Shown here: one piece after another, positions 2,527-54,882 of the stretch | Numbering within the stretch: the stretch's first letter is position 1 | Layout of the letters: each line of letters begins with the position of its first letter | Source: a virus | DNA length: 64,000 nt | Virus record (IMG/VR): IMGVR_UViG_3300044801_000206 | Location: 2,606 to 66,605 of that record | Strand: one strand, 5' to 3' | The notes under the pieces: model-generated | The model's input: the letters and a program-made list of their open reading frames with translations, nothing else | Told to the model about the DNA's origin: nothing | Databases searched by the model: none | Made by a program: the position numbers and the translations under genes

Positions 2527-3413
2527 CCCCACGGCTAAAGCCGGGGGCTTGTAACTGAGCCATGCGATACAACTGCACAACCCGCTACGTTCGGGCACAT
2601 GACGGCGCCCCTGCCCGCTATTACCCTGGCAGCGTTGATATCCGCGTGCTCGGCGTATCCGCACGCCAAACACCGGAAGGTCGATTGGTTGGGACGATTG
2701 CGCTTGTCAGTGTACCCGCAAGCGGAGCATTCCCGGCTGGTATTTCTCGGATCAACGGCGAACAGCGGGACACCCGCCAACGCCGCCTTGTACTCCGTAA
2801 ACGCCCTCAACTGTGCGAATGCCCAACTATGCAGAACTGCTCGTTGCGGTTTCCTAGCCCTGATCCTGGCCCGAATCCCCGTCAGTTCCTCGACGGCGAT
2901 CCCGCGCCAGGTGCGTTCGGCTTTAGCAACGATCTGCTTGGAAATACAGTGGTTCATGTCTTTGGCGAAGCGCGTCTCTTTGCCTGCCAACTTTTTCAAT
3001 CGGCGGTTAGCCGATTTCGTTTGTCGCTTCTGAAGTGCGGAGCGCAGTCGCTGATGCCGATGTCGAATCGACTTCAATTTGGAGCCAGAGTACTGCGTAC
3101 CGTCGCTATCGCTGGCGATCTGCGCGATACCAAGATCCACCCCCAGAAATTCGGACACATCGGATGGTAGGCGATCTTCTGGATAGCGAATGCCTGGAAT
3201 ACCTTCTTCTCCCAGGCGAGGACGCTGATCCAATTGCAGGCGGCATTGGCCCTTGCCATCGTCTCCATGAGGGCGGCATGGGGGATCTGGTTCGCTACCA
3301 GTTTTACCTTGGCCGTCAGTTTCATAAACACAGTATAGCACAAAATCGTCTTAACAATACAGGAGGCGGCGCTTCCTCCCCACGCCTGAAGGCGGGAGCT
3401 TCCGCGCACGCCG
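2520..3413 (-). mobile_element. IS200/IS605-family non-autonomous element A (deleted tnpB, no tnpA)
   Basis: Subterminal hairpins at about 2527-2547 and 3376-3399. Right end finishes in TGAC. Probable target motif TCAT at 3414-3417; left boundary is inferred. Confidence 0.8.
2535..3325 (-). pseudogene. tnpB: tnpB with internal deletion and frameshift near 3170
   Basis: N-terminus MKLTAKVKL..ARANAACNW is in one frame. FLGVDLG, AVEEL, TSRECSAC and HADINAA are in another. Over 100 aa of a typical TnpB are missing. Confidence 0.85.
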
Positions 3414-5777: not shown

Positions 5778-6176
5778 GTGGACTACAAGAGCAACAACAA
5801 CGTGGTTTATTCGTGCAAGTACCACGTCATCTGGTGCCCGAAATACAGGCGTTCCGTGCTTGTGAAGCCGGTCGATGCGCGGCTGAAAACACTCATCCGC
5901 GAAACAGCCGCCGCGCGACGATGCGAAGTCATCGAGTTGGAAGTGATGCCCGATCATGTCCATCTGCTGGTCGAGGTAGATCCACAGTACGGCGTGCATC
6001 GACTCATCCGCGAGATCAAAGGCAGAAGTTCCCATGCGCTGCGCAAGGAGTTCCCTTCTCTCGCTACTCGCCTGCCAACCTTGTGGACCAATTCGTATTT
6101 TGTTTCGACGGTTGGCGGTTCACCGCTGGCCATCGTCAAGCAATACATCGAGAACCAGAAGCGGAGCGAACGTTGA
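5778..6176 (+). CDS. tnpA: IS200/IS605 Y1 transposase
   Basis: [14 protein letters not shown] motif PDHVHL, catalytic Tyr in QYIENQ. Confidence 0.95.
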
Positions 6177-7366
6177 AACAGCTTCGCAAGGTGTACCGAT
6201 TCCGCATGGAGCCGAACGGCGCGCAACGCGAGGCGCTGTCGCGCATGGCGGGCGCCCGCCGATTTGTGTGGAACTGGGCGCTGGCACAGCGCAAGGCGCA
6301 CTACCTTGAGATTGGCAAGGGACTTCCGGCCGCCGAGCTTTCGAGCCGATTCACCGGGTTGAAGCAGCAACCGGAAACCGCGTGGCTTCAGGATGTGGAC
6401 TCGCAGGCCATGCAACAGGTGCTTGCCGATCTTCAGCGAGCCTACCGGAACTTCTTTGAGAAGCGGGCGCGATTTCCGCGTTTTAAGAGCCGGAAGCGGG
6501 ATCAGGCGCGGTTTCGGATTCCGCAGCGTGTCAAGATTGCGGATGGCCGGGTCTATGTGCCCAAGGTTGGATCGGTTGGGATTCGCCAGTCTCAATCTAT
6601 CGACGGTGCGACCAAGAGCGCGACGTTCAAGCGAGATGTCACCGGCAACTGGGATGTGACGCTGGTGACTGAGTTCACGATGCCCGATACGGCGTTGCCG
6701 CCTGCCGATCCGGCCCGCGTGGTGGGCGTGGACCTCGGGCTGAAAGACTTCGCCGTGCTGTCGGACGGCGAACAGGTTCCGGTACCGCAGTTCTTCCGCA
6801 AGTCGGAACGGAAGTTGCACAAGGCGCAGCGCGTGTTCAGCCGCCGCGAGAAGGGCAGCAAGCGGAGGCTGCGTGCGAAGCGGAATGTATCGCTGGTCCA
6901 CCGCAAGGTGGCGAACCAGAGGAAGGATTTCGTTCACAAGTTCACCACCGGATTGGTGGAGAAGTACGATGGGATCTGCATCGAGGATCTGTGTGTGAAG
7001 GGCCTTGCGAAAACCAAGCTGGCTGGACACGCGAAATCGGTCCTCGATGCTGCATTCGGAGAGACGCGGCGGCAACTTGAATACAAGACCGTGTGGAACC
7101 GTAAACATCTCGCGGTGATCGACCGCTGGTATCCATCCAGCAAGACCTGTCACGTGTGCGGCGCGGTCAACGCGGCGCTCACGCTGGCGGATCGAAGTTG
7201 GACGTGTTCGGGTTGCGGTGCTCATCTCGATAGGGATCGGAATGCGTCTCTCAACATAAAAACCGAAGGGCTAATCATTCTCGTCGCGGGGCACGCGAAG
7301 AGTTTAAACGCACAGGGAGCCGGTGTAAGACCTCCGCAGTTGGAGGCAGTCGGTGTTGAACTGTGA
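6173..7366 (+). CDS. tnpB: TnpB RNA-guided endonuclease (intact RuvC)
   Basis: TTG start overlaps the tnpA stop. GVDLG, IEDL, CHVC/CSGC zinc finger, DRDRNA. Confidence 0.95.
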
Positions 7367-7393
7367 ATCCCCCGGCTTCAGCCGTGGGGAGTG

Positions 7394-8107
7394 TCAATTC
7401 CACCGGTAACTCATGGTGCCCATGAACTCGGGCTGAATGGAACTGCCGGCTACTGCGGCTTCCCTCACCCCTCCGACGATGCCAAACCCGGCGGGGATCG
7501 CATGACCAAAAATTTTCAGGCCGCCCAAGTCCCCGCGAATACGTAGTCCCCCACCGAGATTCCCCAGGGCAATGCTTTGGGCGGCGGCCGCAGCGCTGGC
7601 CTGGGTAACTCCAAAGGTCGCGCCGGCATCCATAGTGGCAAAGAGCGAAACGCGGCCCGCTTTCTTGATAAGATATCCGAATCCGCTGCGCACCGTGGAA
7701 AGGTGCGACTGCATCTCGACTGTCGTAATCGAGCACACCTTTGAGCCGCATACCCCGAGTTCGAGAATGGCCGCCGCGAAAGACGGGCTCGAATAGCGGT
7801 TGTACTCCCCGCCAAGGCCCACGAAGACCGATGTCGTAGACGGCGCCGCGACGATGATGATGCAGGTGGCCCCTTCCACTACGAAGGTGTAGGTGCCCGC
7901 AAGGGTGGGCGTTCCCACGATCGCACCACTGGAGGCATTGAGCGTCAAACCGTTCGGGAGCGTCCCTCCGCTCAGTGTATAAGGCGTGGTGCCGCCCAGC
8001 ATACCGGAACTGTACGCTGCGCCAGTCGTTGCGGTATTGGTGGGACAGGTTTGCCCGAAGGCGCAGAACGCGACGGACAGAAGCACTAACCCAAATCGGT
8101 AAACCAT
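7394..8107 (-). CDS. Secreted protein: putative Ig (He_PIG-like) domain plus probable outer-membrane beta-barrel
   Basis: Signal peptide ending AFGQ. GGTTPYT..LPNGLTLNASSGAIVGTPT motif. Amphipathic beta strands ending SYRW. Confidence 0.6.
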   Translation of the reverse strand: MVYRFGLVLLSVAFCAFGQTCPTNTATTGAAYSSGMLGGTTPYTLSGGTLPNGLTLNASSGAIVGTPTLAGTYTFVVEGATCIIIVAAPSTTSVFVGLGGEYNRYSSPSFAAAILELGVCGSKVCSITTVEMQSHLSTVRSGFGYLIKKAGRVSLFATMDAGATFGVTQASAAAAAQSIALGNLGGGLRIRGDLGGLKIFGHAIPAGFGIVGGVREAAVAGSSIQPEFMGTMSYRWN

Positions 8108-9146: not shown

Positions 9147-9181
9147 ATGCTCTAAGCACGGTAGTCAACTATATAATTCCC
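9147..9181. promoter_or_regulatory. 35-bp intergenic repeat, copy 1 (TATAAT on +, TTGACT on -)
   Basis: ATGCTCTAAGCACGGTAGTCAACTATATAATTCCC is 34/35 identical to 19198-19232. Confidence 0.6.
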
Positions 9182-19197: not shown

Positions 19198-19232
19198 ATG
19201 CTCTAAGCATGGTAGTCAACTATATAATTCCC
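19198..19232. promoter_or_regulatory. 35-bp intergenic repeat, copy 2; TATAAT lies 8 nt before the orphan omegaRNA
   Basis: 34/35 identical to 9147-9181. Confidence 0.6.
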
Positions 19233-19236
19233 TACT

Positions 19237-19354
19237 ATGTATCGGCCCTCGTAATTCTTTCCAGAGCCCGGTGCGGGCTTTCAGGAGCCAACGTAGAGGA
19301 TGTCGTCTCATGCGTTTCCTGAGAAGCCGTCGCGTTCACGCGACGGTAGTTCAC
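19237..19354 (+). ncRNA. Orphan omegaRNA scaffold of element C TnpB, followed by new guide TTCCTGACCAACTTGTCGCC
   Basis: 118-bp exact copy of 31753-31870 ending at TCAC. No tnpB or left end adjacent. RNA function is inferred. Confidence 0.75.
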
Positions 19355-22900: not shown

Positions 22901-23035
22901 CTGGGCGGCCTGCTGTGCAGTAATGGCAGTGGATTGAGCAAGGTCCAGCCGCAGGTTCAACCGATAAAGACCTGGGTCCTTCAGATCATTTTGGGAGACA
23001 TTGATCTGAGGCGAATTGGTGTTCTCGTTGGCCAT
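19991..23035 (-). CDS. Tail fibre/host-recognition protein with two He_PIG-like domains and a CBM-like domain
   Basis: Two GGxxPY..LPxxLSL..STG.I.G.PT motifs. NMLVNPS..GLVGW..LYQTFTV is CBM4/9-like. Confidence 0.7.
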   Translation of the reverse strand: MANENTNSPQINVSQNDLKDPGLYRLNLRLDLAQSTAITAQQAAQQALKATAAVTSTLAISFSGSTGIIGVVYGGAFTATGGSPPYIYSASGLPPGLSLNTSTGIIFGTPTTVGPYAVSGSVTDTAGNIATISCTIVISAAVSSTPLQISFAGSAGLIGLAYQGALIATGGVSPYTYSLASGSLPTSLSLSASTGAITGNPTVSGTFTFVGQVTDHASATATTASCTIVINGPPTQPSSIVLTDTGIRTLDQNQTTYATLQMVVKELMSGVLSTILNLEFSLTNRVASLPSLPNPNYPAGIYVYLTSSSQYYQNQSGTWVATATGGWTAIPSSPTVVPDRVDNDGTHYLTTVLFQILVQTSAQSIQVGAYGANQYANPGATVATLSNILTVPIAASPIAGGATITVTNVGGSSPTPANIYMGANGLGNPYWAVAVSLTTPLQGDPNCAFYQLCVEWTDSSGNPINPGGVSNTSGFNKNIEVPNTGATFVEPSLEGNYPGPGVDGYLKFSIWGLSRDNTVNSPPYTGDSTATLQTSTFLLHVGPPPTGNSNNMLVNPSAIQGLVGWTPDSTGTYSTVSNSSLGFAVQCFQIVASGVAGLYQTFTVRPADNYIFEIWAAVTAGAGSGTTEMRLIFLNASGGVVSSATLNLTSLLTSTLQPFSLTGTVPNNAVSMQASVDTLSGTSSTIIFTNSFLVSGVAAPLTKSGNTTTLAMGAGLSTVAGQLAVNITTGNAATVVAALALVDSLIASVGLNKLAAANVTQGTAIFTGDAIFSRGSGNPLIDLSSSGMTLYSTAASGGGSGLVSSPYMSLTGSGITIASSFGGANNYSVIISSSSIQMVYNGTAYITLNTSGITLASGGSSVTITSSSVAIVQGTLSLILNGITTSIANYYDSYGAGYAGFKCLDNSTGAYVGIRPFELFLLYSTTKTVDLYTNAVSGGQAGRLLLSSTATPSAYADLKVDAGSGILYLYDGTHVVNLNGSAFVHQGLPSSDPGSGTKQLWYDPSDSNRVKYAA

Positions 23036-26000
23036 TACGCTGCTCCTTCACCGAGGCCCATCAGTTCATTGAAATTCATCTGCCGCAAGCCAGCGTGCCG
23101 GTCGCCACCGCATTCAATCCATTCCAGACCAGACCCTTCAGTATAGAAGGCTAGGGGAGTTGCCGCTGTAATCTGCACTCTGTAGGTTTTGCTTTTGTTG
23201 TACCCACTGCCCCAAACAGAGGGCAACAAGAAGCGTTCTACCGCTCTCGTGGCATGCGCCGGCAAAGTGGCCGTGAATGTGCCTGTATCGGACAAGATCG
23301 TCACCGTGATCTGAGATGCGCAAGTGTACATCCACCAGCCTTGGAAGACGAACTTCCAAAACTTCACCCCAAAGGTCTGTTCATACGAGTCCCAGATCGT
23401 TACGGCAGCCGGCTCTTTGACATTCTCCACCGTCCAATCCCAGAGCTTGGCGAGACCATTTGTCCCTGGTGTCAACAACAGGCGCCATTGCGTTCCCGAC
23501 AGATTCGAATTGCATGGCAGAATCACTCGCCGCGAGGTATACGTGGTGTTCACGCTGAACACCTGCACCGTCCCGGCTTCTTGTGTTTGTAGCGCAATCG
23601 CGCAGGCTACACCGCCAGTGTTGATGGTAAGAATCAGATTACGCGCGAGCTTGGGGTAGGGATAGCCGAGATCAGACCATGGTGTCCAGAGAACTACATC
23701 CGCCGGGTCAGAGCCGGAAGATTCAGGGATAGGGCTCCAGCGATTAAACGCCCACGAAAATTGCTGGTACTTGCCTCCGTTGCCAGGCGTGATAGTCAGC
23801 CGCCACATTTTGGCGAACACATCCACAGGGATCGGATAGTTATTTTTCCGATTGTCCACCGACCCTGTGTGGTTCACGGTCATCACCGTGCCGTTTTCAT
23901 TCTGCAAAATGACGGCCGCTGGCACGCTTTGGGTGTCTGCATCAATGGAGAGCCATGTCGGATTCTTGTCATTTTGGCTCTCCGCGTCCTTCCAGCCGGT
24001 GCTGTAGATGATGTCCGCAGGATACGGGTCAAAATCGAACTTATATTTCCACTGCTTAAAGCCAGCCGGAATGGTGCCGCCGGAGGGGTAAACGCGGACC
24101 ATCTTGGCAATTGTGTCCGGCGCCAACGGAAACACGCATTTGCTCCGGCCTCCCGTGAGGGTGAAAGACGCTACTGCGGGCGTCACGGTCTGCCCGGCAA
24201 TGCCGCTGAGAGTATCCATCACCAAGTTCACGTTCGATCCGCTGGTGTCGTCCCACTCAATCGTGATTGTCCGAAGGTACTTGTCCCACGGGTGTCCAAG
24301 GTCATCCCAATCAAACGTGTGGCCCACCACTCCTGGGTCGGCAGGCTGAAACTTGAAACTGTGGTTGAATAGCTGAAACTCCCCGCCGCCACTGGTCAAC
24401 GCCGGTTGATTCGGGTCCACGAACAGGCGCCACATTTTCCCCTGCAATCCGGTTGGGATAGTGACGTTAATTTTCCGGTTTTCCTCCGTGGCTTTCGCGT
24501 TGAAGATAAAAACCGTCGCCCCGTCAGCCTGCACCTCTACCGTCACATCGACGTTATTGGTGTTGACTTCGATGTCCAACTGGTTCAGGTACTTGTTATA
24601 CTCCGAACCGCCATCTTCCCACTTCGTAAAGGCGACGATATCTGGGGGGTATTGCTCGTGCTGGAAATTGTACTTCCAGGATTTGAACCCTATCGGCAGA
24701 GGTGTGGTCTGCGGGTAGAGCCGGATGTCCTTCGCGATCAGCCCGTCAGGGAGCGGGAACGTGCGCTCACTGCGGCCAGCGGTCCCAAGATCGAATGTTG
24801 CCACTGCGGACTGGACGGTCCCACCGCCAATGCCAGTCAACAGGTCCAGCACCATCACGACATCACTGCCGCTGGTATTGTCCCATTGGATTGTAACGGT
24901 GTACAGCCGCTTATCGTAGGGATAGCCTAGATCATCCCAATCGAAAGTGTGTTGGACTTCTCCCTTATCCGCCTTCTGGAAAGCAAAGCGATGGTTGAAA
25001 AGCTGCCACATGCCGCCGCCGATGGTCAGAGCCGTTTGAGTGGGATCAACAAAGATACGCCATTTCCTGCCTTTCAGATTTGGCGGTAGCGTAATGTTGA
25101 CCCTGCGATTGGACTCTGTAGTGGTGATGGCGAAGGGCGGCCCGGCATTGGCACCGTCTGTTTGAATCCGAACCGTTACTGCGACGTTGTTGGTGTTCAC
25201 CTCGAAGGTAACTTGGTTGGCGTACTTGTCGTACTCGTAGCCGTCATCCTCCCACGGCGTAAAGGCAACGATGTCTGCGGGATAGTCTTCTTTCTGGAAA
25301 CTGTACTTCCAGTTCTTGAAGCCAACCGGGATGGCCCCGACGGATGGATAGAGTCGGATCGCTTTGGCAATCAGTCCGTCGAGTAATGGGAATGTGCGTT
25401 CGCTGCGACCGGTGCCGGCACCCAGATCAAACGTCATCACTGCGGAGCGTACCGTGCCACCGCTCACGCCACTCAACAGGTCGAGCACCATGACCACATC
25501 TGCACCGCCGGTGTTGTCCCATTGCAGCGTGACGGTATACAACCGCTTGTCGAACTGATGGCCCAAGTCGTCCCAGTCAAATGTATGCTGGACTTCTCCC
25601 TTATCGGCCTTTTGGAAGGCAAAGCGATGCGAAAACAACTGCCACATACCGCCGCCCGAAGTCAATGCCGTTTGGGTAGGGTCAACAAACAAACGCCACT
25701 TTTTACCCTTGAGGCTGGTAGGCACGGTGATATTGACGCGCCGGTTTGACTCAGTAGTTTGCGCAGTCCCAGTGAAAACCGTAGCGCCGTCTGTCTGTAC
25801 CAGAAAAGTGACGCTCACGTTGTTTGTGTTCACTTCCAAATCGATTTGATTCAAATACTTGTCGTACTCATACCCACCGTCTTCCCAAGGCGTAAAGGCC
25901 ACAATGTCAGCGGGATAGTCTTCTTTTTGAAAACTATATTTCCACCCTTTGAAGGTGACCGGCAGGGTGGTTTGTGGGTATAGCCGGATTGCCTTTGCGA

Positions 26001-29000
26001 TCAATCCGTCCGGCAAGGCAAAAGTCTTTTCACTGCGGCCGGCAGTCCCGAGGATAAACGTGGCGACTGCTGACTGGACCGTTCCACCACTCACCCCGCT
26101 GAGGAGGTCCAGTACCATTGTGACGGAAGCCCCGCCCGTGTTGTCCCACCGCAAGGTCACAGTGTAGAGCTTCTTATCGAAGGGATAGTCTAAATCGTCC
26201 CAGTCGAAAGTATGCTGGACCTCCCCGAGATCAGCCTTCTGGAAGGCAAAGCGGTGGTTGAAGAGTTGCCACATGCCGCCGCCCGACACCAGAGCAGTCT
26301 GGGTTGGGTCAATGAACAGGCGCCACTTTTTACCCTTCAGCGCCGTTGGAGTAGTGATGTTGACACGACGATTAGATTCCGTGGTTTGGGCGGTTCCCGT
26401 GAAAACAGTAGTCCCGTCCGCTTGGGCCTGGAACGTCACTGCCACATTGTTGGTATTGACCTCCAGATCAAGCTGATTCAAATACTTGTCGTATTCGTAA
26501 TTGCCGTCCTCCCAAGGGGTAAAAGCCACAATGTCAGCCGGGTATTCTTCCTTCTGGAAGGTGTACTTCCAGCTTTTGAATCCAAGCGGCAGTGGAGTCG
26601 TTTGCGGATACAACCGCACTGCTTTGGCGATCAGTCCGTCGGGCAATGGGAATGTTTTCTCGCTCCGGCCCGCCGTGCCAAGCACAAATGTTGCCACTGC
26701 GGACTGGACCGTTCCGCCACTCACGCCGCTCAGCAGGTCTAAAACCATCGTCACCGAGGCGCCACCCGTATTGTCCCATTGGATGGTCACGGTATAGAGC
26801 CGCTTATCGAACTGGTATCCCAGGTCATCCCAGTCAAAGGTGTGCTGCACTTCGCCCAGGTCCGCTTTCTGAAACGCAAATCGATGGTTGAAAAGCTGCC
26901 ACATGCCGGTGCCGCTGGCGATCGCCGACTGAGCTGGGTCTACAAAGATGCGCCACTTCTTGCCCTTTAGCCCAGGCGGGAGCGTGATGTTCACTCGGCG
27001 ATTCGATTCCGTGGCCGTCACGGTGAAGGTGGGTCCGGCGTTCGCGCCATCTGCCTGGATCTGCACGGTGACGGCGACGTTGTTTGTATTAACTTCAAAA
27101 TCGATCTGGTTAGCGTACTTGTCGTACTCGTAGCCGCCGTCTTCCCAAGGCGTCACGGTGCAAATGTCGGGCGGATAGTTCTCTGATTCCGGGAAAGTTA
27201 CCTCAAAGATCCGGAAGAGATCAGCCGACGATTGAGGCGCGCCGCCTACCTCCGTCGCAGAGGAATACGGTCGCACCCGGAACAGCTTCCCGATTGTCGG
27301 ATCTGATAGCGGGAAGGTTTTCATGCACCGACCCGAACTAAGGCCGGTCGGGCCGGTCAACGTGAACACCTGCGCGGTCCCGTTCGTCAGGCAGTCCCGG
27401 CCGCCGCGCGTTTCCAAAACAATTTGGCGATTTGTGCCAGCAGTATCGAATACCACCGTCATCTGGTATAGCCGCTTGTCGTGCCGGTTCCCCAAATCCA
27501 GCCAGTCCGTGGCGCTGCCGGCGGTCAACAGACCGGTCTCCTGGTACTGGAAGATCAGCCGGTCAAGCGTGCATTGCACCGGCAATGCCGTCCCGGATAA
27601 GACAAACGAAATTGCACGGGCCTCCCGACCATAGGACTGATAAGTGCTCCCGCTCACCAAACTCATGTTGGGAAGTAGGGATACAAGTTGGCGCCCGACG
27701 AAAGAACTGCCTGTGGGGATGGCGATATTGAACGTATCTACGACCGTATCTGAATAATTCAAGAGCACTTGCACTGTGATGGTGGAGCCGCTGGCGGTAT
27801 AAAGCTGTGGGTCCGCATCAAGCCACACCTCCTCCCACAGTTTGTTTATCGCCGGAGTGCCGAGATCAAACCACGGCAATTTCACCGACCAAGAGATCCC
27901 CGCGCCGTCTTGCCCGACTCCCGCCGCAGTCCACCAGTCGCTGGTGTAATTGATCCCACCGCTGATGTACACCGCATCCGCAATCCCAAATACGGCACCA
28001 GCCGAAGTGCCTACCGCCAAGATCAATGACTCCGTGTCCGGCTCACGATAAAGCGTAGTGATGGTGTTGAACGATCCTCCACCGGCCGGTTGATTTTCGT
28101 TGAGTTGATACCAGCGACTGCCATAACGTGGTTCACAAGCCAGCGTCCATATATTCCCATCCGTCGCTGTGTAGACCAACCGCACCACCCCGCGCCGGTA
28201 TTCCATTCTGGCACCAGCCAATGCGGCGGCAGCGGAATAGTTCAACGGGGCAATGCCGTTGAAGTACTGATTGTGGAAAATCGGGTCGATCGCTTCGGTG
28301 CGTTTGGTGAGGGTGCCCCCGTCCCAAGAGTAGACCCCATCGTTCGACAGGAACCACAATTCGCTCTCCGTCTTGCACCATGCCGATTGAGCAACTAAGC
28401 CTTTCTTAGCTACTTCTGCTGCTTGGTAAAGTGACCCGTTGATGACGGGGACTTCAAACAGTGAGCTTAGATTCATGCAGGCTACTTGCCCGCGGAATTC
28501 GCAGAGGTTCACAATGCCATTCGAAGGCGTTCCGACTCCCTGGCTGGTGATGGCGCCGGCCGCGTCTATGCCGACAGGGAACGCTTGTGGAGACCCGGCT
28601 TTGCTCTTGTAGAGCATGTGCGGGTTGTTGGGATCGCCGGCCACCAGGAGTTGATCGCCGATCGAGGCCGCCAAATTGCATGGCTGCCCCATGATGGTAT
28701 CCACTTCCACCGGCGTGCCAGAGGCATGGGCAAACTGGAAGTACGCCGTAAGGCTGTTCGATGTCACCGACACTGCTACAACATCTTCTGGCGTAGTCGA
28801 ATCCAGGATGTGGACTGTACTGCCTGGCGTGACGGAGGTGAAAACGCCAGCCGTCACGGTTATTGTGGCTGTCTGATATTGTGGGTTGCTAGGGATGGCC
28901 GCGATCGTGCCACTGATTGGCGTTTTCACGGTGCTGGGCACGGGAGGGTCATTGTCCGTCTCTACGATGGCTTGGTAGACTAAATCGGCATCAGCCGTGT

Positions 29001-30183
29001 TGTCGGTGAAGGTTACATAATTGCCATACCCCGGATTCGCTACGTTCGCCACCAACCGGTAGAGCATGTCTGTCAACGTGCCGCCGCGGCGGTACACATT
29101 GACCGTGGGGAATCGCGTATTGTCTGCGACTCCCCAGATCAGGACGTAGGCTTGCCCGCCATTCACTGCGACAGGGACGCCTAAATAGATCACGCTGCTA
29201 ACCGTCTTTGTCGTAGTGGAGTTAGCCGACATCGACTGTGAAGGGTTGCCCTGATCCTGTGTGGCCGCTTCCAAATAGCAACAAACCCAATCGTAAGGCT
29301 GAGTGCCATTGGGGCTGCTGACCGCTCCGCCATTCAGGTTCCCGGCGGAGGCAATGCCGGTAACGGTAACGCCTGCGCTGAACGCGCCTGTAGGCGCCAC
29401 TCCTTGACCGTTTGAATCGTATAAACCGAATACTGCGCCTTGCCCATAGCCGGCATAATATGGATCGGCGGCTGAATTGCTGTACCCGACCACTTTCGCG
29501 TAGTACTTACCGTCTCCGGTCGGACAAGTGGCATCGACAATCCATCCAGACGGGACCCCGGAAAATGTCACCACGTCGGCATCAGCAATGCCGGTAGCAT
29601 CGGCTAGGTAGATACGGACTGGGGTGATTGCATCAGCCCCCGTAACCGACACAGGTCCGGTCATTACCGCTGCCATCGGAACACCGTGCGCCGGTTGAAT
29701 CCCCCACTTGGGGAGAGTCGAATAGGGATTCAGGCCACTGTCTTTCAACATGGCGTTAGGGCAAGCGAGGTAAGCCCACGGAGACCCGGTATCCCCCGCA
29801 GCGTAATCGGCCATCTCCCAGTGGGCTTTGTAGTCCGTGTCCACCGCAGTCGCCACCAGCGTTGCGGTATTGTAGTCCAGAGTCCGGTAAAGATCGCGAG
29901 TTGAAACTCCCTGGATGCCGAGATAGCGCGGGTTGGTTGAAGGCGTCAGCGGGTCTTCTCCGCCAGCGATGCGTAGCTTCCGGATGTGGTAGCAATATAA
30001 TTGCGCTGAGGTAAGATTGCCAACTTTCTTCGGGCCAGTGCGACTGCTGAGAGAACCTTCTTGATTGCTGCCAACATTGAGCGCGGACCTGTACTGGCCG
30101 TCTTTCAGAAGGTCAGGAGCGGCCTTCGAGAAGATACCTGCAAGCCCGAATCGAAACTCTGCGCTCTTGGGAGGGGTGGCCAT
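23035..30183 (-). CDS. Tail nozzle/stabilisation-like protein (2382 aa) with tandem C-terminal repeats
   Basis: Propeller-like LYKSK..LWFLSNDGVYSWDG region, KLPWFDLG..K motif, then repeats. Confidence 0.7.
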   Translation of the reverse strand: MATPPKSAEFRFGLAGIFSKAAPDLLKDGQYRSALNVGSNQEGSLSSRTGPKKVGNLTSAQLYCYHIRKLRIAGGEDPLTPSTNPRYLGIQGVSTRDLYRTLDYNTATLVATAVDTDYKAHWEMADYAAGDTGSPWAYLACPNAMLKDSGLNPYSTLPKWGIQPAHGVPMAAVMTGPVSVTGADAITPVRIYLADATGIADADVVTFSGVPSGWIVDATCPTGDGKYYAKVVGYSNSAADPYYAGYGQGAVFGLYDSNGQGVAPTGAFSAGVTVTGIASAGNLNGGAVSSPNGTQPYDWVCCYLEAATQDQGNPSQSMSANSTTTKTVSSVIYLGVPVAVNGGQAYVLIWGVADNTRFPTVNVYRRGGTLTDMLYRLVANVANPGYGNYVTFTDNTADADLVYQAIVETDNDPPVPSTVKTPISGTIAAIPSNPQYQTATITVTAGVFTSVTPGSTVHILDSTTPEDVVAVSVTSNSLTAYFQFAHASGTPVEVDTIMGQPCNLAASIGDQLLVAGDPNNPHMLYKSKAGSPQAFPVGIDAAGAITSQGVGTPSNGIVNLCEFRGQVACMNLSSLFEVPVINGSLYQAAEVAKKGLVAQSAWCKTESELWFLSNDGVYSWDGGTLTKRTEAIDPIFHNQYFNGIAPLNYSAAAALAGARMEYRRGVVRLVYTATDGNIWTLACEPRYGSRWYQLNENQPAGGGSFNTITTLYREPDTESLILAVGTSAGAVFGIADAVYISGGINYTSDWWTAAGVGQDGAGISWSVKLPWFDLGTPAINKLWEEVWLDADPQLYTASGSTITVQVLLNYSDTVVDTFNIAIPTGSSFVGRQLVSLLPNMSLVSGSTYQSYGREARAISFVLSGTALPVQCTLDRLIFQYQETGLLTAGSATDWLDLGNRHDKRLYQMTVVFDTAGTNRQIVLETRGGRDCLTNGTAQVFTLTGPTGLSSGRCMKTFPLSDPTIGKLFRVRPYSSATEVGGAPQSSADLFRIFEVTFPESENYPPDICTVTPWEDGGYEYDKYANQIDFEVNTNNVAVTVQIQADGANAGPTFTVTATESNRRVNITLPPGLKGKKWRIFVDPAQSAIASGTGMWQLFNHRFAFQKADLGEVQHTFDWDDLGYQFDKRLYTVTIQWDNTGGASVTMVLDLLSGVSGGTVQSAVATFVLGTAGRSEKTFPLPDGLIAKAVRLYPQTTPLPLGFKSWKYTFQKEEYPADIVAFTPWEDGNYEYDKYLNQLDLEVNTNNVAVTFQAQADGTTVFTGTAQTTESNRRVNITTPTALKGKKWRLFIDPTQTALVSGGGMWQLFNHRFAFQKADLGEVQHTFDWDDLDYPFDKKLYTVTLRWDNTGGASVTMVLDLLSGVSGGTVQSAVATFILGTAGRSEKTFALPDGLIAKAIRLYPQTTLPVTFKGWKYSFQKEDYPADIVAFTPWEDGGYEYDKYLNQIDLEVNTNNVSVTFLVQTDGATVFTGTAQTTESNRRVNITVPTSLKGKKWRLFVDPTQTALTSGGGMWQLFSHRFAFQKADKGEVQHTFDWDDLGHQFDKRLYTVTLQWDNTGGADVVMVLDLLSGVSGGTVRSAVMTFDLGAGTGRSERTFPLLDGLIAKAIRLYPSVGAIPVGFKNWKYSFQKEDYPADIVAFTPWEDDGYEYDKYANQVTFEVNTNNVAVTVRIQTDGANAGPPFAITTTESNRRVNITLPPNLKGRKWRIFVDPTQTALTIGGGMWQLFNHRFAFQKADKGEVQHTFDWDDLGYPYDKRLYTVTIQWDNTSGSDVVMVLDLLTGIGGGTVQSAVATFDLGTAGRSERTFPLPDGLIAKDIRLYPQTTPLPIGFKSWKYNFQHEQYPPDIVAFTKWEDGGSEYNKYLNQLDIEVNTNNVDVTVEVQADGATVFIFNAKATEENRKINVTIPTGLQGKMWRLFVDPNQPALTSGGGEFQLFNHSFKFQPADPGVVGHTFDWDDLGHPWDKYLRTITIEWDDTSGSNVNLVMDTLSGIAGQTVTPAVASFTLTGGRSKCVFPLAPDTIAKMVRVYPSGGTIPAGFKQWKYKFDFDPYPADIIYSTGWKDAESQNDKNPTWLSIDADTQSVPAAVILQNENGTVMTVNHTGSVDNRKNNYPIPVDVFAKMWRLTITPGNGGKYQQFSWAFNRWSPIPESSGSDPADVVLWTPWSDLGYPYPKLARNLILTINTGGVACAIALQTQEAGTVQVFSVNTTYTSRRVILPCNSNLSGTQWRLLLTPGTNGLAKLWDWTVENVKEPAAVTIWDSYEQTFGVKFWKFVFQGWWMYTCASQITVTILSDTGTFTATLPAHATRAVERFLLPSVWGSGYNKSKTYRVQITAATPLAFYTEGSGLEWIECGGDRHAGLRQMNFNELMGLGEGAA
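23700..27180 (-). repeat. Five to six tandem ~630-bp (~210-aa) coding repeats
   Basis: TPWEDG.YEYDKY.NQ and QHTFDWDDLG recur at about 630-bp spacing. Boundaries are approximate. Confidence 0.9.
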
Positions 30184-30314: not shown

Positions 30315-30713
30315 GTGAGCGAGCGATACGCTAAAAATGCCGGAGCGGTTTTCAGTCTCAAGTACCACGTCGTGTGGTGTCCGAAGTACCGCCGCTCCGT
30401 GCTGGTCAAGCCGGTTGACATTCGATTGAAGGCGCTGCTTCGGCAGAAGGCCGAAGAGTTGGGGTTGACGATTCACACGATGGAGGTCATGCCCGATCAC
30501 GTACATCTGTTCGTGGAGGGTGGCCCTACGATCTGCGTTGCCGAGATCGTCAACAGGCTGAAGGGCTTCACGTCGCACGCGCTGCGCGAGGAGTTCCCGT
30601 TTCTTAAGTCGCGGCTGCCGACGCTCTGGAGTCGGAGCTACTACGCCGGTTCGATTGGCTCCGTCAGTGAAGCCGTGGTCCGAAAATACATCGAAGGGCA
30701 GAAGGGGAAGTAG
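30315..30713 (+). CDS. tnpA: IS200/IS605 Y1 transposase
   Basis: YHVVWCPKYRR, PDHVHL, KYIEGQ. Confidence 0.95.
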   Translation: MSERYAKNAGAVFSLKYHVVWCPKYRRSVLVKPVDIRLKALLRQKAEELGLTIHTMEVMPDHVHLFVEGGPTICVAEIVNRLKGFTSHALREEFPFLKSRLPTLWSRSYYAGSIGSVSEAVVRKYIEGQKGK

Positions 30714-31838
30714 ATGCGGCTCACCTACAAATACCGGCTGATCCCCACGAAGGCGCAGGCAGTCTTCCTGTCCGGCGAGCTTCGCGATGCCTGTTCGCTC
30801 TACAACGCCGCTCTCGAGGAGCGCATCGGGGCCTGGAGAACATGCCGCAAGAGCATCAACTACTACGACCAGGCGAACCAGTTGAAGGCGATGCGCGCCG
30901 ACGGCTGCCTGACACTGGCGAATTTCTCGTGCTGCCAGGATGTGTTGCGCCGGGTCGATAAGACGTACAAGGCGTTCTACGCTCGCGTGAGGCGTGGTGA
31001 GACGCCAGGCTTCCCGCGCTATCGTCCCGCCCGCAGGTACGACAGCATCACCTTCCCGTCCTATGGCGACGGATGCCGTCTGCTGCCTAACGGTAAGCTG
31101 CGCATCCAGGGCGCGGGGCACATCAAGGTCAAATTGCACAGGCCGCTGGAGGGAGCCGTCAAGACCGTGACAGTTAAACGTGAGGCTGGCCGGTGGTTCG
31201 TAATCTTCAGTGTGGAGCGGGATGCCGCTCCGCTTCCGGTCAGTAATCGCGCTACGGGAATCGATGTCGGACTGAACAATTTCGCCGTACTGGCAGACGG
31301 CACGGAGATTCAGAACCCGTGCTACTACCGAAAGGCACAGGCCCGGTTGCGCTGTGCTCAGCGGAAGGTGGACCGGCGGAAGAAAGGCGGCATCCGGCGG
31401 CGCAAAGCTGTACGGTTGCTCCAGCGGGCGCATGTCCATGTCGGCAACCAGCGGCGTGACTTCCAGCACAAGCTGTCGCGCCAATTGGTCAACGAATACG
31501 GTGTGATCGCCGTCGAGGACTTGAACGTGAAGGGGCTCGCTGGTGGGATGCTGGCGAAGTCCGTCCACGATGCCGGATGGTCGATGTTCCTGGGAATGAT
31601 CGCGTACAAGGCTGCGAGCGCCGGACGCGAAGTCATCCAGGTTGACCCGCGTGGCACGAGCCAGACGTGCGTCTGTGGGCAGCGCGTGGCCAAGACTCTC
31701 GCGGATCGGTGGCACGATTGCCCGGTTTGCGGATTGTCGGCTAGCCGCGATCATGTATCGGCCCTCGTAATTCTTTCCAGAGCCCGGTGCGGGCTTTCAG
31801 GAGCCAACGTAGAGGATGTCGTCTCATGCGTTTCCTGA
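30714..31838 (+). CDS. tnpB: TnpB RNA-guided endonuclease
   Basis: YNAALEER, GIDVG, VEDL, CVC/CPVC, SRDH. Acidic triad retained. Confidence 0.95.
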   Translation: MRLTYKYRLIPTKAQAVFLSGELRDACSLYNAALEERIGAWRTCRKSINYYDQANQLKAMRADGCLTLANFSCCQDVLRRVDKTYKAFYARVRRGETPGFPRYRPARRYDSITFPSYGDGCRLLPNGKLRIQGAGHIKVKLHRPLEGAVKTVTVKREAGRWFVIFSVERDAAPLPVSNRATGIDVGLNNFAVLADGTEIQNPCYYRKAQARLRCAQRKVDRRKKGGIRRRKAVRLLQRAHVHVGNQRRDFQHKLSRQLVNEYGVIAVEDLNVKGLAGGMLAKSVHDAGWSMFLGMIAYKAASAGREVIQVDPRGTSQTCVCGQRVAKTLADRWHDCPVCGLSASRDHVSALVILSRARCGLSGANVEDVVSCVS

Positions 31839-31881
31839 GAAGCCGTCGCGTTCACGCGACGGTAGTTCACAAACTCACTAT

Positions 31882-39209: not shown

Positions 39210-39256
39210 GCGCTATTCACTTTTCAAATCATTCTGCCGGCGGTAACTGGTTGTTG

Positions 39257-40399
39257 GGTAGTGGGTCACTTTGGCCCTTCTGCCGAAACGCCGACAACGC
39301 TCCTACCGAGCGCGTTCTCGCCTAAAGCGAGAATATTGATGGCCGCGTTGTGATCACGGTTCAAGGATAACCCGCAATGCGGGCATTCATGCCAGCGATC
39401 CGCTAGTCCCTTCGGAACTGTCTCACCACATCGGCTACATCTCTGCGTCGTACCCCTGGGATTCACTGCCACAACATAGCGCCCGGCGCGTTCGGCCTTG
39501 TACGCAAGGTGGAACAGGAGTTGCCCCCAAGCAGCATCTAAAATACTTTTGGCAAGGTATCCCTTCACCATGTTCGAAATCTTCAAATCTTCATGCGCGA
39601 TTAGGTCGTAGCGTGCTACCAGAGCCTTCGAAACGTGGTGGCAGAAGTTCTTACGAGCGTCGGCCATCCGCTGATACGCGCGGCGCGTTTGCTCTTTAGC
39701 ACGGAGCCGATTCTTACTGCCGCGTTTCTTCCGCGCCAGATTCTTTTGCGCCCGCGCGATCCGCTGTACATGCTGCCGGATGAAGCGCGGATTGGGAATC
39801 TCGCTACCATCCGATAATGTGGCAAAGGTGGTCAACCCAACGTCAATGCCTACAGGATGCGACACAACACATTTCCCTGGCGCTGGGCCAATGTCGCACG
39901 TCACACGCCCCACCCATTTCTTGCCAACCAGTTTGATTGTGGCCTGCTTGATAGTTCCTTTTATCTCCTGGTGCGCCTTGAATCGCACATGGCCCAGATT
40001 CGGAACCAGCACTGCGTCACCGTGAATTCGTGGGCTATGCCACGCGAATGATGTGTAGCGGTCCACCGACCGGAAACGCGGGAATCCAGGATCCTCACCG
40101 CTTTTGCAACGGCGGAAGAACGCTTTGAATGCCCGGTCGATCCGCCGTAGAGGTTCACGTTGAATGTCTGATGCGATCACGGAAAACTGTGGATCTTCAC
40201 GTAGACGCGCCAATTCCGCGCACTGGTCGTATAGGCTGATGCTTTTGTGTTGAAGTTTCCAAGCGTCCCGGCGTTCCTGGAGAGCCGCGTTGTACGTTTC
40301 CTGCGAGTCCAACAGAATACGCGCGAACGCTTCCTTCTGCTTCCGCGTCGGCTTCAATCGCAACTCGTAAGATCGCATCATTCAAACTGACCCACTACT
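39257..40399 (-). mobile_element. Element D: tnpB flanked by 11-12-bp terminal inverted repeats and an 8-9-bp target duplication
   Basis: GGTAGTGGGTCA at 39257-39268 and TGACCCACTACT at 40388-40399. Direct repeat GGTTGTTG at 39249-39256 and 40400-40407. Confidence 0.85.
39266..40381 (-). CDS. tnpB: TnpB RNA-guided endonuclease (intact RuvC)
   Basis: YNAALQER, GIDVG, HEDL, CSRC/CPHC, NRDHNAA. Confidence 0.95.
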   Translation of the reverse strand: MMRSYELRLKPTRKQKEAFARILLDSQETYNAALQERRDAWKLQHKSISLYDQCAELARLREDPQFSVIASDIQREPLRRIDRAFKAFFRRCKSGEDPGFPRFRSVDRYTSFAWHSPRIHGDAVLVPNLGHVRFKAHQEIKGTIKQATIKLVGKKWVGRVTCDIGPAPGKCVVSHPVGIDVGLTTFATLSDGSEIPNPRFIRQHVQRIARAQKNLARKKRGSKNRLRAKEQTRRAYQRMADARKNFCHHVSKALVARYDLIAHEDLKISNMVKGYLAKSILDAAWGQLLFHLAYKAERAGRYVVAVNPRGTTQRCSRCGETVPKGLADRWHECPHCGLSLNRDHNAAINILALGENALGRSVVGVSAEGPK

Positions 40400-40607
40400 G
40401 GTTGTTGCCGGGAGGAAGATCCGGAGGCTTTGGAGTATGGCTTGTAATCTTCAACAACAATGCTCCGCTAATCCCTGTTGTCAGCCCAGCGACCGTCTGG
40501 TAAAACTGGCCATCAGTTTTGAACCACCACTCCGCGAAGAATAGAGCGACTGTGAAGAATATCAGCAGAGCCGCCAACAAAACCACCATCGGGTCGATCT
40601 TCTGCAC
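40395..40607 (-). CDS. Two-TM membrane protein, possible holin
   Basis: Two hydrophobic segments. C-terminus truncated by element D. Confidence 0.55.
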   Translation of the reverse strand: MQKIDPMVVLLAALLIFFTVALFFAEWWFKTDGQFYQTVAGLTTGISGALLLKITSHTPKPPDLPPGNNQ

Positions 40608-45833: not shown

Positions 45834-45951
45834 TTGACACTCCCCACGGCTGAAGCCGGGGGATTCACAGTTCAACACCGACTGCCTCCAACTGCGGAGG
45901 TCTTACACCGGCTCCCTGTGCGTTTAAACTCTTCGCGTGCCCCGCGACGAG
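45834..45951 (-). ncRNA. Orphan omegaRNA scaffold of element B TnpB, followed by new guide GGAGGAATTTGACCGTGAG
   Basis: 118-bp exact reverse-complement copy of 7280-7397. Preceded by TTAC+C. Confidence 0.8.
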
Positions 45952-45966
45952 GGTAATCCGACCTTG

Positions 45967-46045
45967 GGTAGTGGGTCACTTTGGCCCTTCTGCCGAAACG
46001 CCGACAACGCTCCTACCGAGCGCGTTCTCGCCTAAAGCGAGAATA
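45967..46045 (-). ncRNA. Orphan 3' scaffold of element D TnpB, followed by new guide CAAGGTCGGATTACC
   Basis: 79-bp exact copy of 39257-39335, including the right inverted repeat. Confidence 0.75.
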
Positions 46046-54805: not shown

Positions 54806-54882
54806 CGGGGCGTAGCGCAGCCCGGTAGCGCGCTTGCCTTGGGCGCAAGAGGCCGTTGGTTCAAATCCAACCGCCCCGACCA
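54806..54882 (+). tRNA. tRNA-Pro(TGG)
   Basis: Acceptor CGGGGCG/CGCCCCG. Anticodon arm CTTGC-CTTGGGC-GCAAG. T loop TTCAAAT. Encoded CCA. Confidence 0.95.

Follow-up and report, generated by a model that had tools for sequence, protein, structure and literature searches.

The 64-kb stretch of viral DNA analysed here (IMG/VR record IMGVR_UViG_3300044801_000206, positions 2,606 to 66,605; "the window" in what follows, 64 kb of a 66.6-kb record) carries on its minus strand a 1143-bp element, at 39257-40399, whose sole content is an intact tnpB gene. The tnpB gene is normally carried by elements with hairpin ends. This one is bounded by terminal inverted repeats of IS1 type and flanked by an 8-bp duplication of its target site in a small phage gene. 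We consider it, with a probability of roughly 0.85, to be a non-autonomous IS1-type insertion sequence with tnpB as its sole cargo, for which a DDE transposase of IS1-like type would be supplied in trans from outside the element, and we further infer the boundary between its omegaRNA and guide as well as a capacity for homing.

The terminal inverted repeats follow the consensus (A/G)GTAGTGGGTCA(G/C)TTTG, and their arms of 16 nt each (39258-39273 and 40383-40398) are complementary at 15 of 16 positions; the arms including the outermost base are given in Table 1. The repeats hug the open reading frame (ORF), as a reading of the same DNA made from sequence only had noticed: the right-end arm includes the TGA stop codon (39266-39268), and 18 nt separate the left tip from the ATG (40381). 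The direct repeat that the same reading had placed outside the ends is also there. It measures 11 nt (ACTGGTTGTTG, 39246-39256 and 40397-40407), but the true target duplication is set at 8 bp because 19 members of the end family described below have 8-bp duplications abutting the GGTAGTGGG tip; over the remaining 3 nt the left tip AGT agrees with the flank by chance. The interval first marked, 39249-40407, therefore runs exactly from duplication to duplication. The inverted-repeat score of 13.5 is on its own merely borderline against chance (425 shuffles: mean 8.4, 99th percentile 12.0, maximum 14.0). The repeat is nevertheless judged decisive because exact 8-mers flank it and because it matches a terminal sequence present in at least 118 viral loci. 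The left tip carries an A where the end family has G.

The encoded TnpB covers its domains at full length (Pfam: PF01385, 1.4e-22; PF07282, 4.5e-24; PF12323, 1.4e-06), scores 257.8 bits with the NCBIfam model guided_TnpB NF040570 against a cut-off of 100, and aligns over residues 3-352 with the solved structures of ISDra2 TnpB (E 2e-51). In the alignment to a TnpB-like solved chain, with positions counted by hand, the RuvC triad is kept in the motifs GIDVG (D180), AHEDL (E264) and NRDHNAA (D343), together with two CxxC pairs (C315/C318/C333/C336). Judged by these features, tnpB is intact.

The viral contigs were scanned with the terminal pattern GGTAGTGGGTCANTTTG, which gave the at least 118 loci mentioned above. 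A pattern with 16 fixed bases may yield chance hits in a large collection, and inverted pairs of ends were used as evidence instead. There are 37 such pairs 60-6000 bp apart, 19 of them with exact 8-bp duplications abutting the GGTAGTGGG tip, and between the ends lie DDE transposases of the IS1 family, cargo genes or, in miniature inverted-repeat transposable elements (MITEs), nothing. The cargo includes methylases, restriction enzymes, SocA/Panacea, M78-HTH regulators and an AAA_21 ATPase. Since MITE-like members of 131-650 bp contain nothing, the ends alone suffice. ORFs of 267-316 aa stand beside one end inside the pairs. PF03400 (DDE_Tnp_IS1) is matched by 7 of the 61 inner ORFs at 26.8-38.8 bits (cut-off 24.1), and the NCBIfam IS1 model NF033558 is the top match for 10 of 12 candidate transposases, the other two being unmatched. 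Plasmid homologues with 49-55% identity carry the annotation "IS1 family transposase". One of these genes, on a Mesorhizobium loti plasmid, has the exact 20-nt end GGTAGTGGGTCAGTTTGAAA 269 nt beyond it, with just an 11/12 end match and no duplication on the gene's other side; no such end was found within 600 bp of the Hoeflea plasmid homologue. Cultured phages gave one match to the IS1-like transposase, at 33% identity, in a Brevundimonas phage. The earlier proposal of a non-autonomous tnpB element mobilised by an IS1-like transposase is supported and for the most part correct, since the same ends, with 8-bp duplications, flank PF03400-matching ORFs; mobilisation in trans would be the most likely way for it to have moved.

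No transposase of any kind lies inside 39257-40399, and transposase searches of the phage record returned no IS1 or IS1595 transposase, which is why we regard the element as non-autonomous. The first reading had spoken of no transposase; this holds for the element but not for the phage, which encodes Y1 transposases elsewhere. When 115 tnpB loci and the window were searched with eight transposase queries, the single match was a separate IS1595 gene in locus L011, at a distance of 1.6 kb from tnpB.

The insertion interrupts a phage ORF of 70 aa, which now reads ...PPGNNQ* and stops at the TAG of the left repeat. At the other end of the element the duplicate carries on in the same frame as NNQLPPAE*, with its stop 19 nt before the ATG of the next gene, and removal in silico of the element plus one repeat copy restores the small upstream ORF. 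We picture the event as follows. An IS1-like DDE transposase from the host or a co-infecting element would bind both 17-20-bp terminal inverted repeats and insert the element into the last codons of the small phage gene, the staggered cut being filled in to give the 8-bp duplication. The right repeat would then serve in three roles, as transposase site, as the end of the TnpB reading frame and as the 3' end of the omegaRNA scaffold, so that the right end would be under three simultaneous constraints: protein, RNA and transposase site. Because the right repeat would end the scaffold, the guide would be copied from the duplication and the right flank. Such a guide would match uninterrupted insertion sites, expected to read ...CCTCCCGG-CAACAACC-AGTTACC..., and empty sites would be cut, after which the element would be copied in (homing). 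At the occupied site the C of the element tip would precede the match, versus a G in the left flank.

Table 1. Features of the tnpB element and its surroundings (window coordinates)
Feature	Position	Strand	Basis
Target-site duplication, right-end copy (GGTTGTTG; gene strand CAACAACC)	39249..39256	.	Direct repeat; length from 19 family members
Right-end terminal inverted repeat (GGTAGTGGGTCACTTTG read inward), holds tnpB stop	39257..39273	-	Repeat search, family comparison
tnpB, 371 aa, intact	39266..40381	-	Pfam, NCBIfam, ISDra2 TnpB structure match
3' module overlapping tnpB end, likely omegaRNA scaffold	39257..39335	-	Conserved hairpins; 100% duplicate at 45964-46045; predicted
Predicted guide template, duplication plus right flank (CAACAACCAGTTACCGCCGG)	39237..39256	-	Inferred from TnpB/omegaRNA rule; unique in window
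Left-end terminal inverted repeat (AGTAGTGGGTCAGTTTG), tip G->A	40383..40399	-	Repeat search, family comparison
Target-site duplication, left-end copy	40400..40407	.	Direct repeat
Small hydrophobic phage ORF, 70 aa, last 5 codons removed by insertion	40395..40607	-	Stop TAG within left repeat
Solo copy of the element's last 82 nt, 100% identical, right end only, other flank	45964..46045	-	Self-comparison; also in runs X4, X6, X7

In TnpB/omegaRNA systems the guide follows the right end of the element. The 3' module of the present element is likely its omegaRNA scaffold: its final 120 nt are more stably folded than shuffled sequence (z -2.8), and eight relatives share a 6-bp hairpin, GCGCUC-GGUAG-GAGCGC, as well as a terminal hairpin formed between GGGYCA and UGACCC, the latter being the repeat's inner half. 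Double changes occur in 5 of the 16 hairpin pairs, with a small covariation term. The locus gave no match to an Rfam family. If it starts at the right tip, the predicted guide would read CAACAACCAGUUACCG..., and under that proviso it matches the left junction over 11 nt, the self-match that had been foreseen from the sequence. The predicted guides of the element and of the solo copy have no other match in the window.

There is also a one-sided base preference next to the duplications. Of the 10 tnpB elements with a duplication (one duplication being 7/8), 9 have a G immediately 5' of it at the end where the gene starts, the exception being L037; the equivalent base on the other side is G in one of eight elements scored, and controls with the same ends but without tnpB have G in 21 of 74 cases. 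The one-sided G has a binomial probability of 8e-5 with p=0.28 and 7e-4 with p=0.36. The element tip places a C at this position, and visual inspection of the 12 nt preceding the duplication showed no target-adjacent motif (TAM) longer than one base. The pattern hints that the G is a selected TAM. It is possible, though we hold it to be rather doubtful, that TnpB in IS1- and IS1595-type elements acts as an RNA-guided homing nuclease, in which case the G 5' of the duplication would be selected after insertion and not supplied by the transposase, insertions beside any other base being lost, the guide would cut alleles that lack the element, such as those of co-infecting phages, with the C tip shielding the occupied site, and solo right-end modules, such as the solo copy and a tandem module in L019, would add guides as a step towards an array.

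Protein searches with the element's TnpB gave 22 viral and 80 metagenomic loci, which after removal of same-contig duplicates and truncated genes left 78 relatives. In total 85 loci were scored for terminal repeats: the window element, 77 of the 78 relatives (one has too little flank), five tnpB loci from the genome scan described below and the two IS605 copies of the window. With the threshold set at 12, the 99th percentile of the 425 shuffles, 28 loci reach it, namely the window element, 23 relatives (one of them, L015, a doubtful palindrome) and four of the five genome-scan loci, the last being circular evidence since they were found through their ends. A null built from mismatched locus pairs was discarded because loci share end families. 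In nearly all 28 the right tip lies 4-24 nt beyond the tnpB stop, and an exact 8-bp duplication is present in 8 of them, six among the 24 formed by the window element and the relatives and two among the genome-scan elements. A second protein search, starting from L042, gave 25 loci with only 3 new contigs and no new duplication.

Repeats are thus found in 23 of 78 relatives. The window end type (GGTAGTGGGTCA.TTTG) recurs at both ends of L035; most of the repeat-bearing relatives have a second end type, GGGAMTTATATAC, and the closest relative, L004 (TnpB 85% identical), lacks the left repeat. In L036 as in L004 the window end type is seen at the right end only, the left repeat being truncated or absent, and variants of it occur in L054 and L064. 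The second type belongs with IS1595. A scan of bacterial genomes with GGGAMTTATATAC gave at least 120 loci, and the 80 examined for pairs contain 34 pairs, 20 of them with 8-bp duplications; the 39 ORFs inside these pairs include 13 IS1595 transposases (12 above cut-off) and 5 TnpB, and further members are MITEs. The window element, with ends that are not of the GGGAMTTATATAC type, falls outside IS1595. Reading the second end type as hairpins seen twice was rejected, as in L016 the inverted alignment (20/22, by eye) beats the direct one (15/22). In a FastTree phylogeny the repeat-bearing relatives other than L064, which the tree does not place, fall into one clade of 41 rows (support 87); the sister clade of 32 rows has no terminal repeats and includes the phage's Y1-linked TnpB, and the genome-scan tnpB elements are placed apart. 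This suggests that capture took place more than once.

L016 and L017, like L019 and L043, are near-identical tnpB elements in different flanks, and in each pair one has the 8-bp duplication and the other has not; the flanks of L017 are inverted (AGAAT/ATTCT), as expected from recombination between copies. L019 (~3100-3290) consists of an L043-like tnpB element with an extra ~88-nt right-end module of a related element, placed in tandem just ahead of its own right end with AAC on either side. Modules of the right end thus duplicate or recombine as whole units in this family. The window itself holds two identical solo IS1595-type arms (GGGAATTATATAGTTGACTACC, minus strand) at 9160-9181 and 19211-19232, within 35-nt repeats; they are intergenic and partnerless and resemble relics of the other tnpB-carrying element type.

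Several results weigh against an IS1-type insertion mobilised in trans. The duplication is absent in 15 of the 23 repeat-bearing relatives, and L004 keeps the right end without a left repeat. With NF033558 scores of 52-70 bits, under the curated cut-off of 100, the partner transposases are distant IS1 members. None of the at least 118 loci with these ends shows similarity to TnpB, so such cargo is rare, and an element holding both tnpB and a transposase was never seen among the loci examined. The one-sided G rests on 10 elements, a small sample that spans two end types. Given its A in place of the family's G at the left tip, the element in the window may have lost its mobility. Both a left repeat and a duplication are missing from the solo right-end copy, and a simple DDE insertion leaves such a copy unexplained. 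A second full copy of the 39257-40399 element was not found: apart from the L004 contig no further sequence with the exact right end turned up, and none at all with the exact left end. There was no match in five Terriglobia-like genomes; among 401 genomes of that class, 7 match at E<=1e-40 with at best 60% identity, and TnpB identity in cultured phages is at most 39%. The empty allele was likewise not found when the neighbouring protein, the right flank and junction contigs were checked. No viral relatives of the neighbouring 223-aa protein were found, the 28-nt right flank is absent from every other viral record searched, and contigs of four further runs contain only occupied junctions, identical to those in the window, with no joint across the element.

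Several of the same facts bear on the proposal that the element arrived by IS1-type transposition and is now immobile, the phage keeping TnpB for a use of its own, e.g., as an RNA-guided nuclease for homing or against competitors, to which solo right-end copies would lend additional guides. The A at the left tip, the intact ORF with its catalytic residues kept, the 100% identical solo right end with another flank in the same phage, the junctions identical in four further runs, and the retention of gene and right end in L004 and L036 after loss of the left repeat all agree with it. L309, in contrast, shares the A tip and has a normal partner end, albeit without a duplication, and neither guide matches elsewhere in the window. 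We regard this proposal as unlikely, and as it concerns present function it does not contradict an IS1-type origin.

Far less probable is that the element is an ordinary tnpB-only member of IS200/IS605 (IS1341 group), moved as single-stranded DNA by the phage's own Y1 TnpA and only incidentally bordered by repeats. The phage does hold the required enzyme in two full IS605 copies, with the Y1_Tnp gene tnpA at 5778-6176 followed by a tnpB ending at 7366, and tnpA at 30315-30713 followed by tnpB at 30714-31838. A solo right-end fragment of the first copy (IS605-1), just after TTACC, suggests past Y1 activity in the phage, and the NCBIfam model IS200_TnpB matches the element's TnpB (P0001) at 245 bits, a score below its cut-off of 425. 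Y1 mobilisation is nevertheless unlikely because of the contrast in hairpins, the duplication, and the lack of anything shared with the IS605 copies beyond weak tnpB similarity. Hairpins of the form CCCC..GGGG are present at the ends of IS605-1. The element, in contrast, has just 18 nt ahead of the ATG at its left end, which is unfolded as DNA (-3.9 kcal/mol, z +0.79), in agreement with the first reading, which had seen no Y1-type hairpin. Self-BLAST found no end similarity to the IS605 copies, the ends of the element belonging to the IS1-like family instead, and its TnpB sits in the repeat-bearing clade, apart from the Y1-linked copy. Y1 elements make no duplication according to the parts of PMC13565253 and PMC4810608 that treat them. 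A serine recombinase of IS607 type is disfavoured too, since the phage record has no Resolvase domain and the repeats and duplication are contrary to IS607.

Least likely of all is a nested accident, i.e., a classical tnpB element inside a pre-existing IS1-type MITE that supplied the repeats and duplication: same-end members of 131-1142 bp are common and L257 and L273 are near the element's size, but these two have no TnpB similarity, the repeats hug the ORF and leave no room for separate IS605 ends, and relatives with 50-68% protein identity show an equally tight layout.

The families ISL2, IS630 and IS1031 make duplications of 2-3 bp or of TA. IS1 ends, as catalogued by ISfinder, start with GGnnnTG, and IS1 duplications measure 8-9 bp; some forms of the family carry passenger genes. 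The present element resembles IS1 in its ends (GGTAGTG), its 8-bp duplication and its IS1-like partner DDE transposases; it differs in having no transposase and in carrying an RNA-guided nuclease with a predicted RNA that ends in the repeat, and the partner transposases differ as single ORFs of 267-316 aa distant from the curated model. TnpB linked to DDE elements is known. Altae-Tran 2023 (PMC10691335) describes, in the portion available, branches DDE-1 to DDE-6 with inverted terminal repeats and the 3' end of tnpB near one end, as well as solo TnpB whose ends are shared with copies that do encode a transposase, for which mobilisation in trans is suggested. The element is like these branches in having TnpB within inverted-repeat ends and differs by its 8-bp duplication. 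The main text of that paper names IS630, and a 2026 review (PMC13565253) names, in its accessible part, ISL2, IS630 and IS1031. Within the same portions of the two texts no mention of IS1595, ISXO2 or IS1 was found, and the supplements of PMC10691335 may list more families. Fanzor1 (Bao and Jurka 2013, PMC3627910) is, as far as the available text goes, a TnpB-family passenger in DDE transposons with terminal inverted repeats and duplications, one of them of 8 bp, but it belongs to eukaryotic or giant-virus elements and other transposon superfamilies, and that part of the text does not mention Merlin, IS1016 or IS1595. Supplements aside, we found no description in the literature of TnpB with IS1 or IS1595 ends, and what is new in this well-supported element is its IS1-type ends and the phage setting. 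The IS1595-type tnpB elements among the relatives are alike in being tnpB-only, with DDE-type repeats, 8-bp duplications and a G beside the duplication, while the window element has IS1-like ends and shares its phage with Y1-type IS605 copies. Compared with IS200/IS605 (IS1341 group) and ISDra2, it has the same full-length TnpB and structured 3' region overlapping the gene end, but no hairpin ends or TAM-directed scarless insertion, and it has a duplication.

In the accepted view, TnpB recuts the donor site emptied by scarless Y1 or serine excision, and the transposase itself has picked the TAM. TnpB in IS1- and IS1595-type elements, with random targets, duplications and no TAM-directed insertion, tests this role directly: either the nuclease has another job, or, as suggested by the one-sided G, selection meets the TAM requirement. 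Within 64 kb the window sets two IS605 copies of Y1 type beside one tnpB element of IS1 type, which makes for a natural comparison. The latter would also widen the set of compact TnpB/omegaRNA pairs, with guide start points marked.

The two IS605 elements (5778-7397 and 30315-31870, plus strand) are canonical, with a 132-aa Y1 tnpA followed by tnpB and hairpin ends, and both are oriented against the phage genes. The first ends in TCAA and has TTACC ~19 nt 5' of its left hairpin. Right-end copies of both, each of 118 nt and 100% identical to 7280-7397 and 31753-31870, with the rest absent, lie at 45834-45951 (minus strand) and 19237-19354 (plus strand), respectively; the former directly follows TTACC. 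Together with the 82-nt solo copy, right-end-only copies total three, each about the size of an omegaRNA scaffold, and left-end-only copies number none. Two units form an array-like arrangement both at 45834-46045 and at 19198-19354: a DDE-type right-end remnant is followed, 4-12 nt beyond its tip, by the IS605 right-end fragment, which points the same way. In run X6 (peat) the sequence to the right of window position 46045 differs and resembles the right end of the second IS605 copy in reverse; the intergenic spot beside the solo copy is polymorphic between samples. The start of the viral record, outside the window (L003, 1-190), holds one more tnpB, of which the contig boundary leaves the 3' end; a DnaB-like helicase gene comes after it, and the right end of this tnpB, ...GGTAGTTCAC, is similar to the right end of the second IS605 copy. 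Elsewhere in the window, a 2382-aa ORF (23035-30183) contains internal repeats of ~0.85-1.9 kb with 70-73% identity (24413-27179), and a tRNA gene lies at 54806-54879.

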